Under the pieces are notes generated by a model, which was not told the DNA's origin, made no database searches, and was given only the letters and a program-made list of their open reading frames with translations. A DNA stretch of 64,000 bases from Mayamaea pseudoterrestris. Lineage: Eukaryota. The stretch covers positions 434,001 to 498,000 of the forward strand of contig BROI01000002.1 of NCBI GenBank assembly GCA_027923505.1, read 5' to 3'. Both the position numbers and the translations under genes were made by a program. Positions 1-7,795 of the stretch are shown piece after piece (the first letter of the stretch is position 1; each line of letters starts with the position of its first letter).

Positions 1-3000
1 TCTTCCAGTGCCTCATGGGCAAGGTCACTGATTACTGCAAGAAACTGATTGCTGCAGGTCTTCCACCAAGTCAAGCAGCCTCCGGCGCCATGTATGTCAT
101 CAAGAATGTGATCGACGATCTCCTACTGCTCTCCAATGACCGTCACTACCTTTGCTACGTCTTTGACTGCCTCTGTCAAGCATTCATTCACTTCCGGCTC
201 ACCTTCAAGTTGAAGAAATGCGACTTCTTCTTCAATCGCCTGGAATGGCTTGGTCACGACTGGACTCCCTCTGGCAATGTTCCTGCCCAATCCAAGTTTG
301 ACTTGATCCGCAACTGGGCCTTGCCCACAACGTCGCAAGCCCTCAACTCCTTCGTCAGCTTCTGTGGCTTCTACCGCAATTACCTACCTTTCTTTGAATA
401 TATCATCACACCACTTCGCCAGCTTATCCGACAGCACAAGCACTCATCCATCCCTCATACCGCCTGGTCTCCAGTTCTCCTCAAGCTTTTCAACCAACTC
501 AAAGCCGCCATCACATCTTCTCCCTGCCTAGCCCGTGCCGATTCCTCTACACCCTTCTTCATCAAAACTGACTGGTCTGCCAAGAGTGTTGCCTCCATTC
601 TCATGCAACCAGACAACTCCGCTGCCTCTCGAGCTGCACTTCTCGCCATGGATGCTGGTGCAGCATGCGCCTTTGACAAAACCAAATCTGGTGCCCGCCT
701 GCGTCCTATCAGCTTCAACCAGCGGAATTGCTCGGAAATTGAGACCCACTATCATTCCTTTGTGGGAGAGGCCGCGGCTGGTCGCTACGGCATTCACATT
801 AACCGTCACTTCCTCTGGGGTAAGAAGTTTTACTGGCTCTGTGACTGCAATGCCATCTCTGCACTGCTTTCCTACGAGGGTGACAACCATCTCCTTCGGC
901 GCTGGGCCATGGACCTTCTTGGCTATACCTTCGAGATCATCCATCGTCCTGAACGCATGATGCAAGATGTTGACGCCTTGAGCCGCCATTACGCACACTG
1001 TGATCCCTTGGTCCGGCAATATAACCTGCAGAGTGATGCCTTGCGCGCCGCCAGCTTCACTGCCAACCCAAGTCAGTTTCTTCCCGTTCCCATGAGTGCA
1101 CTTTCTGCACGAGGCTCCTATATTCCACCAAGCCAGCCTCCCTCAGCTACCTCCACCGCTGCCTTCTCCATCATGGATCCCCTGCCCTCGCCTGCCACTG
1201 TGCCTTCTACGCTATCAACATTCAGCACCATTCTCTGCAGTCATGGCATTCGCTCCTCCGCACGTCAATCGCCTACCAGCGTCATACCAGCCAACCCAAC
1301 TGCACCTCCTACCCTTCAGCACCTCCTTCATTGCGGAGTCAATGTTTCCTCCCCTGTGCACTCCTCTCCCTTGCCCGTCTGCAGTGACTCCAGCGCCATT
1401 GCATCCCACCTTGTGCATCAGCACTATCTTCCCTGGTTATCCATCAATAGCCCACCTGGCGTCCATGCCCTCAGCCATGACTGCATTTTGCCATCAAATC
1501 TTCTTCTGCTCCATCAGTGTGATTCTCGCCGTCAACTCTGTCAGCGCCTCCACTCTGCAAGCATTCATCGCACCTACGACCCGACAGCCCCCATCTTGTC
1601 CGATGCATCAACCCTTGCTGGCTTCTCTTCCTTCGCTGGCTGCGACTCTACCTACTCACCACGTGACGGCCTTCTTTCCACATGGTTATCCTCAACTCTT
1701 GCCCTCTTCACTGGCCTCAGTCACTCCCATGCTCTGCGCCACTTTGTCATCATTATTCCAACGACCATGAGCCCTTCACCATCCTCTACATCAAGTCCAC
1801 CTGCCTACCCTGACTTTGTTGCACCATGTCTTCATCTCCATTCCTCCTCTTGGACAAGCCATGCCTCCATCTCCTGGAGCCAGGACTTTGGTGATCGCAT
1901 TTCTCGAGGCACTCTCTACATTTTTGGTGTCTCCACCTCGGTTGCCGACTGCTCTTCCTTGCTCTCTGCCATCAGCACATTGCCTACCCTCGGCGCGGAT
2001 GCACCAGCCTACGGCGTTTTTGTGGACCGTCACCTCCATCAACCTTGTGCCTCTACTTCCGCCTGCGCCTTTCCCGTCACTCCATCTCCAGTTCACCCAC
2101 ACATTGACAGTTTTTCACCTTGCGTCATGGGCACACTTGACTGTCTGGGCACTTCTGTGCCCATCCTTCATCCCAGCCATCCTGCCTACATTCTTCCTCT
2201 CCTACCTGATTCACCCTTCTCTGGTAGCTTCGCTATCCCCTTCTACTCGCCAAACGATGAGCTTCAATACCGACCTTGCGCACCATCCGAGCTTCTGTCT
2301 CTCCTGTCCTTCAACCATCACTCCGCGGGCTACATTCTTACTCAGCCACTCTTGGACCAGCATCTCATCATTCAAGAATGTGCCGGTGTCGTCAGTCTCT
2401 CTACCATACTGCACCATGTTATTTCCACTGTGGCAGCCTCCGTCATGTACCCACCTCCCGCGGGCAGCATTGCTTGTTACACCTCCCCAGTCTCCCTGAT
2501 TCACCCATCTCAAATTCCGACACTCCCTGAATGGACAGCTGCCTACGCCGCTGATCCCTGCTGCTCTGCCATCATTGCCAAGCTTGAGTCTCCTGCACCA
2601 TGGTCATCTTCCGAACTCTCCAAGATCAACTCCTGCTACCGTCAAATGGCTCGCCTTCAAGCCTTTTGCCTCTCCAATGGTCGCCTCACAGTCTACACGC
2701 ACACTACTGATTCCACTCGCGCCCTCCTGTTGATTGTGGTTCCAGAATCCCTGCGCCGTCGCGTCTTTGATGCATTTCACGGCTCTCCTTGCGCCGGACA
2801 TATGGGACCAAAAAAGGTCCTTCTGCGCTTGCGTTTGCTTTTCTTCTGGCCCAACATGAGCTCGTTTGTACACCACGCGTGCAAGGCTTGTCCTGAATGT
2901 CACTTGGCCAATGCAACCTCTCGCCCATCAAGCACTCTTCTTCATGGCACTATCTTACAGCAACCCATGGCCCTTCTTCACATTGATGCCTGGATGCCCG

Positions 3001-4775
3001 GCGTCACCACATCCTTCTTTGGCAAGTACACTGGTATTCTCACTGTCGTCTGTGATTTAACCGGTTTTGTCGTTGTGGTTCCATACACCAAGGCTACATC
3101 TGCCAACTTTGCCCGACTGCTTGTGTCCGACGTACTCCTTCTATATGGCTTCTGCTCTGGTGTGGTCATTGATGACGATAGCAAGTTCAAAGGATTCTTC
3201 AAGTCCATGTGCACTCAACTTGGCCTCGCTTATCACGTCCTCTCCAAAGGCAATCATCAGGCCATGCGCTGCGAACGTGTCCACCGTTATTTTAACAAGG
3301 TTGCCAAGATTGAGTGCGGCAAGCGTGAGACCAACAAGGTGTTTGTGGAAGCCGCTAAGCTTGCTGGATACGCCTGGAATTGCATGCCCATTGACGGCAC
3401 AGACATTGTCCGCAGCTTCGTGGTGACTGGTCGAGTGTTCAAGTTCCCTCTGGAGGTTGCCTTAGAGACGCTCCTTGCTCCTACTGATAACGCCAGTCTC
3501 AGTCTGCAACGCTTCCTTACCAGCATATCGGATACTCATATCTTCTCGCGGGAAATCCTCTCTATCCTTGTGGCCGACCGCCGCGCTGCCCACCGTGAAG
3601 CCATCAATGCTACCCGCACTCCAGTTCATTACCTTGTCGGTGATCTGGTAACAGCCAAGCGACAAGTCTCCAGTGACTCTACTCAAAACCGAGTTGGCAA
3701 ACTCTCCTACGATGTACAAGGACCTTTCAAAGTTGTTGAAGTGACCTCCCACGACTCCTACATGGTTCAAAAATGGGATGATCCCGCTGCCCCTCTGCTG
3801 CGCTTCAAAGGTGGGCTTTTACACCCTCTGCCGCCTGTCCTCCAACCCTGCCTGCCTATCGATACCATTGATTACCACTACCTCAACATTGATCGTGCCC
3901 CTGTCTTGCACCCTTTCAAGAACCACCTCGGTATTGATTCTTACAACTATCTCTGGCTGCATGGCACTCCTCCCCCAGCCCGCAATCCAAATGATCCACC
4001 TCCCGCCATCCCTGCTCCCATCTCTGCCATCAACCCTTCTGTCCCTCGCCTCTCCGATCTGCTTGGTACTTCAGCTACGCCTTCCAACCCCTCCATCCCC
4101 GATGTGGTGCTGCAGCCATCATGTGAAGCAAGACCTACCAGACCTACCAACTTTGTCCTACGACATACCGACCCGTCTGTCTGCTGCACCGATCCAGAAA
4201 GCCTCTGTCACGCTATCCAGCAGTCACGTGACAAGCTTTTCTTTGTGACCTACCTTGCCACTGGAACGATGGTGCCCTCCCTTCACATGGTCCAAGTTGA
4301 TCTCAACTCCTCTGCATTGAGTCGCGACTCGTCAAACTACCGCACTAATGGAACCTACTATTGCAACTTTCAGAAGCGGCCGGAAAGTGACTCTAGCTTA
4401 CCCTGGAGCCAAAGCCGGTGGCGTACACACTGGTGTGAATTTCACAAAAGTACGGATGACGAATTGCTTTACGGCAAGACCGTCGAGTTTCGCCGAGCAA
4501 TCAAGGCCCCAGACTACTCCAGATACACAGCCTTTGCAAATTTCTTCAACCTTACTGACCCAGACACATTTGTCTACGGGCCCTTTGAGTTTGCGGATGA
4601 AGGTATCTTGCCATCTGGAGGCGAGAAGAGCCGAGAACGAGTTGAGAAGCTTCACTGGCTACGTCTGCAGGAAATTATCAAGGACAGGCCAAGCATTCCC
4701 TTCCCAAATCTCCTTCCTACAGACATCCAAGAGCCTCAAGCTATCCCTCCCTCTCTCAAACGAAGAAAGCACTAG
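1..4775 (+). mobile_element. Ty3/Gypsy LTR-retrotransposon pol ORF (RT - RNase H - large insert - integrase - C-terminal extension); 5' end lies outside the window
   Basis: Frame is open from the window edge (FQCLM...). RT motifs VIDDLLLLS, KLKKCDFF, WLGH, FCGFYRNY; RNase H IKTDWS, YHSFVGE, WLCDCNAI, DVDALSR; integrase HHCC (HGSPCAGHMG...CKACPEC), core LHIDAW / VIDDDSKF / CERVH, and QGPF. RT-RH-INT order is Gypsy-type. Confidence 0.93.
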
Positions 4776-4909
4776 ATTAATCACTCGGATAGTCTATTTG
4801 TTAACTCAAGTCATTCATCCAAGCCTTATTCCCCTCCTGCCAAGTTAGCCTGTCAGCCGCCTTTCAACCATTCGACAGCCATCTGTCAACTCCGCCCTCG
4901 CCTGCCTAA

Positions 4910-5546
4910 GCATTCCCAGCGTCGCCTTATCAGCCATTTTATCCGGTTAAGCCAGTGTTGTGTGATCTTTGTTGTTTGCCAGTCTTGTTGTATGAAAAGC
5001 CTTGTTGTGTGAAAAGCCTTGTTGTGTGAAAAGCCAGCCATAAAGCCATAAAGCCAGCCATAAAGCCATTCAGCCAGCCATAAAGCCATAAAGCCAGCCA
5101 GCCATAAAGCCATTCAGCCAGCCATAAAGCCATAAAGCCATAAAGCCAGCCAGCCATTCAGCCAAAGCCAGCCAGCCTTGTTCTCCTTCCTTTACTCAGA
5201 TCTTTTGCTATTCAGCCCTTGTCTGTCTCAGCATTATCAGCGTCACCTTGTCAGCATTTTATCCGGTTAAGTCAGTCTGGTGTGATCTTTGTTGTTTGCC
5301 AGCCTTGTTGTGTGAAAAGCCTTGTTGTGTGAAAAGCCTTGTTGTGTGAAAAGCCAGCCATAAAGCCATAAAGCCAGCCATAAAGCCATTCAGCCAGCCA
5401 TAAAGCCAAAAGCCAAAAAGCCAGCCAGCCATAAAGCCATAAAGCCAGCCAGCCATAAAGCCATTCAGCCAGCCATAAAGCCATAAAGCCAGCCAGCCAT
5501 TCAGCCATAAGCCAGCCAGCCTTGTTCTCCTCCCTTTACTCAGATC
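4910..5546. repeat. Tandem duplicated ~320-bp block in the retrotransposon 3' UTR, with internal 17-bp and 4-8-bp repeats
   Basis: Anchor ATTTTATCCGGTTAAG at 4936 and 5256. Each copy has three CTTGTTGT(G/A)TGAAAAG units, then AGCC/ATAAAGCC/ATTCAGCC runs, and ends CTTGTTCTCC..TTTACTCAGATC. Confidence 0.95.
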
Positions 5547-5671
5547 CTCTGCTGGTCTTGCGTTCACCGGGCTTTCGCGGGGCTGCTTTGTATTTATACT
5601 TACTCAGCCCAAAATATGGCATTCCTATTCAGGTGGCCGCCCGGAACCCTCATTCATGATACTTGCGCCCC

Positions 5672-6600: not shown

Positions 6601-7575
6601 TTAAATATTTTTTTTCGCCGCGCGCCTTGTCACATCTCGCTCTCTGGCTTGCTCCGCAAATTCCATGAGAGTCTTTTGACGCGCCAGCTCCTTCAACATT
6701 TGCATGCACAGTGGCACGTAGCTGTGGCGGCGCCGCTCATTCTCCAGTTTGTACTGCGCGCGCTTGCGTTGTTCGTGTTCCAATGCAAGTTGCAGCTCCT
6801 GCACGTGTTCCGGTGATGACGACTCGTCCAGCGACTCGAGCTCGCGCCGAAGCGCCACGCGCTTGTCCTGCACGACGGCCATGAGATTGAACTTGATGTG
6901 ACTATCGCCCGCCTGCCGCATGCGCTCCTGCAGCGCCGCCGTGGCAATTTCGAGCCAGGCCGCGTCATTGTTATTATCGTCGCTATCCGGCACGGTCCCA
7001 ACGACAATTGGTCCTTGCTGCAAGCCATCCAGTTCGTACACGACCTGATTGTGCGGCACGTACGCGACAAAGTGAAAGGCTTCCCCCTCGTCGCTACTGA
7101 CTGCCACTTTGTCACTGAGAATCAAGTCGGGCTTGCGAAAAACGTTGTGGGCCGCCTTGATGGTTTCGCTGCTGCTAATGGCCACTCCCTTGAGCTGCGG
7201 CGAAAAGCTTTCCGTGAACGACTTGAATTCCGTCAAGACTGGTCCCAAATCTAACGTATTGTTACTGTCGGCAGAGGACGCATTCATCAAAACACTGAGC
7301 ATGGCTTGCGTGGCGCAGGCGTTGGTGGTGACTTGATGCGCAAAGAATAGATTGGGTGGAATGGCCGACTCGTCGAGCGGTTCACGCGCATGACTTTTGC
7401 CCATGTACTGAAACAAGAATACCAATCCATAAATCTTGTTACTCGTGCTACTCAATTCGCCGAGACTGTAGACTTCGTCCAGCTCGACGCCTTGGACGCC
7501 GAGCGTTTCGAGGAGTTCGGTAAAGACGCCCGGATCACTTTCGATCAAGCACCAATCGTCTTCGCTACTTGACAT
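6601..7575 (-). CDS. UCHL5: Ubiquitin carboxyl-terminal hydrolase UCH37/UCHL5 (peptidase C12)
   Basis: WCLIESDPGVFTEL, YGLVFLF, FFAHQVTTNACATQA (catalytic Cys), AFHFVAYVP, YELDGL, FNLMAV, C-terminal ENERRRHSYVP. Start set at MSSSEDDW. Confidence 0.95.
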   Translation of the reverse strand: MSSSEDDWCLIESDPGVFTELLETLGVQGVELDEVYSLGELSSTSNKIYGLVFLFQYMGKSHAREPLDESAIPPNLFFAHQVTTNACATQAMLSVLMNASSADSNNTLDLGPVLTEFKSFTESFSPQLKGVAISSSETIKAAHNVFRKPDLILSDKVAVSSDEGEAFHFVAYVPHNQVVYELDGLQQGPIVVGTVPDSDDNNNDAAWLEIATAALQERMRQAGDSHIKFNLMAVVQDKRVALRRELESLDESSSPEHVQELQLALEHEQRKRAQYKLENERRRHSYVPLCMQMLKELARQKTLMEFAEQARERDVTRRAAKKNI

Positions 7576-7795
7576 GCTTTGTAATGATATTGACAGAGTG
7601 AGAGTGAGGAGCAAATTATGTTCTGCGTATATTATGATGGGACTTGCGCATTGTGATGAAAGTCCGCGGTCGAAGGATTGCAATGACGCGCGACGGACTG
7701 ACCGTTATATCTGTCGCATCGGTACACACACACATCAAACGTTCCGCCGCGCCGCGCCGCAGCACAAATCCATTGTCACGGCATGATAATGAAAC

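Follow-up and report, generated by a model that had tools for sequence, protein, structure and literature searches.

The closest described counterparts of the domain reported here are DNA methyltransferases (DNMTs) that retrotransposons carry within their own coding sequence. According to the part of PMC5890265 cited here, active DNMTs occur in SymbioLINE, SymbioDIRS and the Gypsy element KnitGypsy-Dnmt3, where they keep their functional residues, show Ka/Ks values below 0.2 and produce CG methylation in yeast. In Ty3/Gypsy-like long terminal repeat (LTR) elements, adenine methyltransferase domains are located between reverse transcriptase and integrase, and the EpiLTRs add a DNMT4-like domain at the 3' end of pol (bioRxiv 10.64898/2026.05.21.726589, likewise in the part cited). 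Together, these passages place active cytosine or adenine methyltransferases in retrotransposons of dinoflagellates, a charophyte, green algae, euglenids and others (PMC5890265; 10.64898/2026.05.21.726589). For diatoms, the cited part of PMC2806351 gives the typical order of protease, reverse transcriptase, RNase H and integrase for the GyDi elements and does not contain the word methyltransferase, and that of PMC9998398, which surveys the host DNMTs of diatoms and other microalgae, mentions no transposon-borne DNMT. Here, we analyse a stretch of 64,000 nucleotides from Mayamaea pseudoterrestris (contig BROI01000002.1, positions 434,001 to 498,000 of the forward strand; this whole stretch is called the window below), which begins within the pol gene of a Ty3/Gypsy-like retroelement. 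Between the RNase H and the integrase of this element lies a domain that we read as a pseudoenzyme, that is, as derived from a DNMT, catalytically inactive and retained, with a probability of about 75%.

As in KnitGypsy-Dnmt3 of Klebsormidium nitens and in SymbioLINE-DNMT and SymbioDIRS-Dnmt3 of Symbiodinium (de Mendoza et al. 2018, PMC5890265, in the part cited), a C5 cytosine methyltransferase (C5-MTase) fold lies in frame in pol, probably under purifying selection here too, and the element is of Gypsy type, as is KnitGypsy-Dnmt3. Unlike the DNMTs of that study, which come from other host lineages, the domain has lost motifs I, IV, VI, VIII and X in 10 of 10 family members, lacks the conserved catalytic residues that those enzymes share, and is invisible to the Pfam profile PF00145. 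The DAM-LTR and EpiLTR elements similarly hold a methyltransferase in a Ty3/Gypsy-like pol, flanked by reverse transcriptase and integrase, which shows that the junction between these two repeatedly accepts such modules. They are presented as methyltransferase domains, none of which is described as a degenerate pseudoenzyme in the cited part of 10.64898/2026.05.21.726589. A full-text literature search, with supplements outside its scope, found no inactive DNMT fold in a retrotransposon. Among the DNMTs known to have been captured by retrotransposons, the domain is best placed as a degenerate variant.

The pol open reading frame (ORF) is organized as follows, with residues numbered as amino acids (aa) of the pol protein:
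3..4775, + strand: pol ORF of a Ty3/Gypsy-like retroelement, 1590 codons, its 5' end cut by the window edge; it comprises the reverse transcriptase tail, RNase H, the insert, the integrase and a C-terminal region.
465..926, + strand: RNase H domain, aa 155-308, matching Pfam RT_RNaseH_2 at 1e-13 and RT_RNaseH at 8e-11.
1020..1415, + strand: linker rich in Ser, Pro, Ala and Thr, aa 340-471, with composition S20 P14 A11 and without Lys.
1416..2450, + strand: DNMT-like domain, aa 472-816, supported by an AlphaFold2 model, Foldseek, VIA and ESM language-model features; a Rossmann-type catalytic remnant with a target-recognition/small domain.
2514..2738, + strand: conserved stretch 5' of the integrase zinc finger, aa 838-912, kept in all relatives including short fragments.
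2739..2915, + strand: integrase H2C2 zinc-binding domain, aa 913-971, matching Pfam PF17921 at 1.5e-16.

About 600 residues separate the RNase H domain from the integrase zinc finger, and a Pfam scan of this gap returned no family even at E<=10. The element has a Ty3/Gypsy-type pol in which about 500-600 additional aa separate RNase H from the integrase, and a reading made earlier from the letters alone (hereafter the sequence-only reading), which had described an in-frame insert of about 500 aa between these two domains, was right on this point, the frame from 3 to 4775 being open throughout. The domain order is that of Ty3/Gypsy elements, with RNase H followed by Integrase_H2C2 in the window and with RVT_1, RNase H and H2C2 in the related proteins P0133 and P0009, and the window ORF holds RNase H, the DNMT-like fold and the integrase in one frame. 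The linker is probably disordered, and its identity to relatives is 18-40%, with indels. The stretch at aa 838-912 is a putative integrase N-terminal extension of the kind known from Ty3/Gypsy integrases. The window holds a single copy of the element.

An AlphaFold2 model of pol aa 465-840 (376 residues), built from an alignment of 11 sequences, reached a mean predicted local distance difference test score (pLDDT) of 61 and a predicted template modelling score of 0.65, with core blocks at pLDDT 77-90. Its N-terminal 80 residues, which correspond to the cofactor half, were the least confident (pLDDT 24-59), and several loops were also low. Searched with Foldseek against the PDB, the model gave 44 matches at E<=1e-3, the listed ranks 1-44 being all chains of the C5-MTase family, in the order 8yf3 (4.4e-6), M.HhaI, M.MpeI, DNMT2, DNMT1, M.HaeIII and MET1; E values for 8yf3 and M.HhaI were 4e-6 to 7e-6, and the first protein outside the family appeared at rank 45. 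VIA-align, which is independent of Foldseek, was run against 48,161 representative chains, and the 18 chains at Z>=8 were C5-MTases without exception. M.HhaI (10mh) matched at Z 16.4, with a root-mean-square deviation of 4.0 and 287 of 327 residues aligned, as high as 8yf3 (16.4), and was followed by M.MpeI (16.3), 3g7u (15.7), M.HaeIII (14.8), DNMT5 (13.8), DNMT2 (13.2-13.4), DNMT1 (12.8), ZMET2 (12.6), DNMT3A (12.3) and DIM2 (9.3). Chains of DNMT3L were also among the matches, at Z 6.6 and 5.8. We considered reading the DNMT class of origin from this ranking (bacterial types 16, DNMT5 13.8, DNMT3 12.3) and rejected it, since Z may vary here simply with how large the recognition lobe is.

The C5-MTases align to model residues 8-352, that is, to pol aa 472-816 and nucleotides 1416-2450, whereas the top methyltransferase from outside the family, METTL16 (Z 7.2), covers only residues 9-198, the first half of the model. 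Given this whole-length coverage by C5-MTases and half coverage by other methyltransferases, the match singles out the two-lobed C5-MTase architecture from Rossmann folds at large; the model thus predicts a Rossmann catalytic domain together with a target-recognition/small domain, motifs IX-X leading back into the large domain, as VIA and Foldseek both indicate. The best structural matches, M.HhaI, M.MpeI and the C5-carboxymethyltransferase 8yf3, extend over their full length (Z 16.3-16.4, 282-302 residues), whereas their identity to the domain is 7-12%, their invariant catalytic residues are lost in it except for the Arg and Glu of motif IX, and their charge is opposite. Language-model features agree on this family: of the 30 clusters nearest to the window domain, 28 carry PF00145 (score 0.91; 131-135 of 256 features shared), with the PF00145-carrying fraction in these clusters amounting to 13-20% of members. 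For P0009, the most distant relative at 23% identity, the three nearest clusters are 100% PF00145 (score 0.85; 150-153 of 256 features shared). By the calibration of the tool such matches are leads rather than proof, and the family that they name agrees with the fold search. Overall, it is very probable that the domain has a DNMT-derived fold.

If the fold was retained, the catalytic motifs were not. In an alignment of nine true DNMTs (A3, consisting of E. coli Dcm, two close homologues, five phage enzymes and one archaeal-virus enzyme), the invariant columns are G94, G96 and G97 in motif I, P175, C176 and Q177 in motif IV, E223, N224 and V225 in motif VI, Q273, R275 and R277 in motif VIII, R399, T402, P403 and E405 in motif IX, and Q432, G434, N435 and V437 in motif X. 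The Dcm homologue search gave no protein below 74% identity to the E. coli enzyme. Two of its hits were used, the phage and archaeal-virus DNMTs were added for diversity, and one sequence without annotation was left out. The corresponding positions in the window domain were mapped through the order of secondary-structure elements in the model, with no superposition:
1434..1460, + strand: motif I position, aa 478-486; predicted strand beta1 (WLSI), then NSPPG instead of FxGxG.
1632..1658, + strand: motif IV position; predicted strand beta4 ((FA)GCDST), then YS instead of PC.
1734..1760, + strand: motif VI position, aa 578-586; predicted strand beta5 (HFVIIIP), with IIP instead of ENV.
1878..1928, + strand: motif VIII remnant DFGDRISRGTLYIFG, aa 626-642; the sole hhalign local alignment to true DNMTs, at E 0.58.
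2268..2312, + strand: motif IX YRPCAPSELLSLLSF, aa 756-770; Arg757 and Glu763 spaced as in the RxxTPxE of true DNMTs.
2367..2393, + strand: predicted motif X position, IIQECAGVV; the GN of Q.GN.V is lost and the block reads QECAG.

The same losses extend through the family. A pattern scan of the 10 members found F.G.G, EN[VILA], Q.R.R or GN.[VI] at no position in any of them. The motif I block lacks FxGxG in each of the five members that cover it (NSPPG, NSPPG, NSTLG, HAPLA and ESQTG), and the triplets at the motif VI position (IIP, YIP, IVP, LLP, FLP, ILP, MIP and LLP) contain E-N in 0 of 8 members. At the mapped motif IV site, where the window has T-Y-S, four of seven members have Tyr, three more distant ones have Cys and none has Pro; the only conserved PC of the family sits in motif IX. 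In motif VIII, the [FY]GD triplet is kept in all seven members covering it and an Arg stands at the first-Arg position in four, with QxRxR in 0 of 10. The Arg757 and Glu763 of motif IX, by contrast with these losses, are present in 9 of 9 members and near-invariant in the family alignment A2, at the spacing of the invariant R399 and E405, and this pair is the only set of invariant DNMT catalytic residues retained. The cofactor-binding half is both the least conserved and the worst predicted part of the domain. With motifs I, IV, VI, VIII and X lost, methylation is not expected, which makes the domain a pseudoenzyme; on this model-based map, we conclude that it would be unable to bind S-adenosylmethionine (SAM) or to transfer a methyl group in the canonical way, and catalytic inactivity is highly likely.

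The core of what the sequence-only reading had proposed for the insert agrees with these results. The peptides that it quoted all lie in the pol frame (WLSINSPPG at aa 478-486, LRHFVIIIP at aa 578-586, SQDFGDRISRGTLYIFG at aa 626-642 and YRPCAPSELLSLLSF at aa 756-770), its placements of motifs I, VI, VIII, IX and X coincide, as far as the inferred mapping goes, with the corresponding secondary-structure elements in the model, and the lack of a catalytic PC at motif IV is borne out by the GCDST of strand beta4 being followed by YS. Its suggestion of a catalytically dead fold kept in an intact ORF holds as well, the motifs being lost in 10 of 10 members and the frame open. The resemblance to C5-MTases on which it relied exceeds chance at the level of the fold (Z up to 16.4, against at most 7.2 for other Rossmann methyltransferases) and does not reach significance at the level of sequence (hhalign E=0.58). 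It had also proposed that the idea would fall if the insert resembled no Rossmann-fold methyltransferase, or if it were disordered and missing from sister copies. Neither is the case, since the structural matches are C5-MTases specifically and all spanning relatives carry the domain. An intact FxGxG, PC or ENV, which it had suggested looking for in relatives, was found in 0 of 10. Of the uses that it suggested, namely DNA binding, target-site choice and evasion of host methylation, the first loses likelihood given that all 10 members are net acidic and poor in lysine.

Relatives of the element are few and diverged. A word-indexed search with a single query returned one protein, P0002, and the alignment query in 'longer' mode also gave one protein. 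P0002 is 50% identical to the window pol over 1507 columns, and its insert is 35% identical and collinear. An exhaustive search of 1.84 billion cluster representatives gave 10 proteins at E<=1e-3, four of them long pol proteins and six fragments, all annotated as 'hypothetical protein' or unnamed; two metagenome scans yielded 71 and 261 pattern matches and 0 confirmed loci. Every relative that spans the insert carries the DNMT-like domain collinearly. The only scanned relatives that cover all three flanking domains, P0133 and P0009, show RVT_1, RNase H, a gap of 577-629 residues and H2C2; P0002, which is without the reverse transcriptase part, shows RNase H, gap and H2C2, and P0007 ends upstream of the integrase. 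Identity to the window is 48-71% for RNase H, 32-44% for the C-terminal region and 36-59% for the integrase in the four spanning relatives (P0007 stops after 52 aligned residues, at 35%). For the DNMT-like domain, it is 23-37%, with 10-32 inserted residues per 365, in the five longer relatives. Among the blocks conserved within the family are W[LV]S, G[YF]DCT, a hydrophobic strand that has Pro as its last residue, [FY]GD, APAYG, FSGSFGIPF, RPxxxxEL and QECxG. The P0005 cluster contains intact ORFs of 1907 aa that are near-identical across several contigs, a pattern that suggests recent activity with the domain in place; its members are too alike to inform on relative rates.

Variation within the window element was examined over positions 1-5600, using contigs of two public sequencing runs from two studies, which cover 85% and 72% of the sampled words. 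The contigs depart from the window sequence at scattered sites. Forty substitutions were listed, with 99 further ones not listed, and 38 of the 40 fall in the ORF. Across the whole ORF, 29 of these 38 are synonymous and 29 lie at third codon positions, giving a ratio of non-synonymous to synonymous rates (omega) of about 0.14, and across the whole insert 13 of 20 are synonymous. Within the DNMT-like domain, 8 of the 13 listed variants are synonymous and 5 non-synonymous (V>I twice, D>E, S>P and T>A; omega about 0.28), against an expected synonymous fraction of 0.25 under uniform mutation or 0.31 with weights from the observed spectrum (p 0.006 and 0.024, respectively). Considering this bias together with the collinear conservation of the domain in relatives whose RNase H is only 48-71% identical, it appears that translation of the domain uses this frame and that its sequence is constrained. 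In so small a sample, from collapsed contigs, the bias is supportive of constraint rather than conclusive; that the domain is under selection we regard as likely. The X1 and X2 contigs join position 836 to 3165, dropping 2328 bases in frame (the end of RNase H, the DNMT-like domain and the start of the integrase), at a joint with only 25 letters on its shorter side that may be a repeat artefact. A second joint, from 4740 to 5416, drops 675 bases and is present in all three runs. No RNA run was found among the public sequencing runs matching the stretch.

Several points weigh against the view of the insert as a retained DNMT pseudoenzyme. At the level of sequence, the evidence is negative throughout: Pfam at E<=10 finds PF00145 in 0 of 10 family members, so the domain fails the profile of the family despite its fold match; phmmer and the family hidden Markov model (HMM) find no match among PDB sequences; and hhalign of the family alignment A2 with the nine true DNMTs gives, in local mode, a single non-significant alignment (E 0.58) that pairs SQDFGDRISRGTLYIFG with the motif VIII segment of Dcm, and nothing in global mode. 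The model itself has 121 of 376 residues below pLDDT 50 and an alignment depth of only 11 sequences, the motif mapping rests on secondary-structure order instead of superposition, and the 131-153 of 256 language-model features shared are below the level usual for true family members. The DNMT-like domain is also the fastest-evolving part of pol, the selection estimate comes from 38 in-ORF variants among 40 listed (99 more being unlisted) in collapsed contigs of two samples, and the composition of the domain tracks a pyrimidine-rich strand. The insert (1020-2522, + strand) is 64-68% pyrimidine with only 14-19% A, the remaining two + frames over it are likewise open for 224-242 codons, and aa 340-840 form a run of 501 consecutive residues without lysine. 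With the strand so pyrimidine-rich and the other + frames open, the open frame alone is weak evidence, and the argument therefore rests on the collinear relatives and on the codon-position bias of the variants.

These points lend themselves to two explanations that would deny the domain either its origin or its function. One is that it never derived from a DNMT, the AlphaFold2 model having arisen artefactually from too shallow an alignment, or showing a Rossmann-like fold reached by convergence, as might be argued from the uniformly negative sequence-based tests, the mean pLDDT of only 61 and an ESMFold2 homodimer prediction (score 0.00, run without the alignment as input) in which the chain fold was uncertain. 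Against this, the match spans both C5-MTase lobes and exceeds that of generic Rossmann methyltransferases by 9 Z units, and PF00145 is indicated independently by the language-model features of two members that share only 23% identity. The top hhalign segment also lies on motif VIII, motif IX keeps its R-x5-E spacing, and we consider a non-DNMT origin quite improbable. The other is that a captured DNMT has decayed into a tolerated spacer, in frame only because a stop or frameshift would kill the downstream integrase. Such a relic would fit the conservation of the domain, the lowest in pol (23-37%, against 48-71% for RNase H and 36-59% for the integrase), the third of the model with low confidence, the loss of every catalytic motif, and a composition rich in S, P, L and H that follows the 64-68% pyrimidine strand with its three open frames. 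A spacer, however, would not be expected to retain its length, its collinearity and a predictable two-lobed fold while RNase H has diverged to 48-71% identity, nor to show synonymous bias (8 of 13 listed variants, omega about 0.28) or to keep [FY]GD, FSGSFGIPF and RPxxxxEL even in fragments, and decay of this kind appears rather unlikely.

Two other explanations would grant the domain a function of a different kind. A still active, highly unorthodox methyltransferase, acting on DNA or on another substrate, would agree with the retention of the overall fold, with the Cys at the mapped catalytic position in three relatives and with the activity of other retrotransposon DNMTs (PMC5890265, in the part cited). 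Since no member has the SAM-binding glycine loop, ENV, QxRxR or GN, the window copy has Tyr-Ser at the PC position, and the cofactor-binding half is the worst predicted and least conserved, we regard this explanation as very improbable, more so than any of the others. A non-catalytic reader of DNA or chromatin that steers integration, for instance to methylated transposon-rich DNA, in the manner of the chromodomain of chromoviruses, has more in its favour: the domain is located directly upstream of the integrase N-terminus, the target-recognition lobe is retained in a model that aligns to the whole of M.HhaI, and the capture of epigenetic domains for targeting has been discussed for other retroelements (10.64898/2026.05.21.726589, in the part cited). 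The electrostatics of the domain are at odds with such a reader. It has a net charge of -10 and no lysine in 365 residues of the window copy, and all 10 family members are net acidic, at -1 to -19, with 0-10 lysines, whereas among the nine true DNMTs a net positive charge is the rule (+4 to +9, with 17-38 lysines, in eight of them), the exception being the enzyme of a halophilic virus. Lost as well are QxRxR and GN, whose residues lie along the DNA and target-base site of true DNMTs. The acidic net charge and the near absence of lysine make direct DNA binding less likely, and the reader remains unlikely overall.

Returning to the pseudoenzyme, a DNMT fold without working catalytic motifs is also found in DNMT3L, a catalytically inactive paralogue of mammalian DNMT3 that works by binding its partners DNMT3A and DNMT3B, and it is on this analogy that an action by binding may be proposed here. 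DNMT3L differs in being a host gene with a reduced C-terminal lobe, whereas the present domain has the whole two-lobed fold, within a transposon polyprotein. From the fold, the motif loss and the conservation observed over about ten diverged element clusters, we infer the following course. A Ty3/Gypsy-like lineage would once have taken up a C5 cytosine DNA methyltransferase where RNase H and integrase adjoin; the captured domain would have kept the two-lobed DNMT fold and lost motifs I, IV, VI, VIII and X, and would still be translated within pol under purifying selection. It would now work by binding and not by catalysis, most plausibly as a scaffold or a module for protein interactions that accompanies the neighbouring integrase, as its position directly 5' of the conserved stretch at aa 838-912 suggests, and its partner may be the host methylation machinery or the integration complex of the element itself. 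A role in binding proteins rather than DNA is put forward tentatively, as a possibility with somewhat less than even chances. More specifically, the dead domain might be an anti-silencing or targeting device that is delivered with the integrase and engages host cytosine methylation like an inverted DNMT3L, either blocking the methylation of new insertions or tethering the integration complex to chromatin that is being methylated; this joint reading is speculative, and we consider it improbable as it stands.

Outside the insert, the 3' part of the element has features of its own. No Pfam rve match was found for the integrase core (2900-3900, + strand), at E<=1 in the window protein and at E<=0.01 in four relatives; the region is nevertheless 36-59% conserved in the four spanning relatives, and the catalytic core of this integrase lineage seems, by its sequence, to be unusually divergent. 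After the integrase and a proline-rich stretch, a region of about 190 residues (4155-4727, + strand; aa 1385-1575) shares 32-44% identity with its counterparts in the four relatives extending this far, and 34 columns of the alignment A4 are invariant. Pfam gives no family for this region, and an AlphaFold2 model of the C-terminal aa 1380-1590 was unusable (pLDDT 37); it may be a second unrecognised domain of the element family. Just 3' of the pol stop lies a tandem duplication (4891-5209 and 5212-5553, 87% identity) that is packed with short CCATAAAGCC and AGCCAGCC repeats and has about twofold contig depth over 4891-5553. A check for LTRs found this duplication 3' of the ORF and no demonstrable LTR pair, the 5' end of the element being outside the window. 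Contigs of two runs diverge from the window sequence at about 5472, which suggests the end of the element and the presence of other insertion sites. The neighbour of the element is a 367-codon open frame on the opposite strand (6601-7704, - strand), which by eye resembles a host ubiquitin C-terminal hydrolase and may encode one.

Relative to the active enzymes known from other retrotransposons, this element family represents a later stage or a different outcome of methyltransferase capture, in which the fold outlasts all the catalytic motifs and is hidden from ordinary domain searches. Surveys based on Pfam would thus undercount the epigenetic domains that transposons have captured. The domain offers a concrete and testable transposon-borne pseudoenzyme, the partner of which could reveal how such elements handle host DNA methylation. 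If the proposed engagement with host methylation is true, a retrotransposon would have made a non-catalytic decoy or adaptor out of a silencing enzyme that it had captured.

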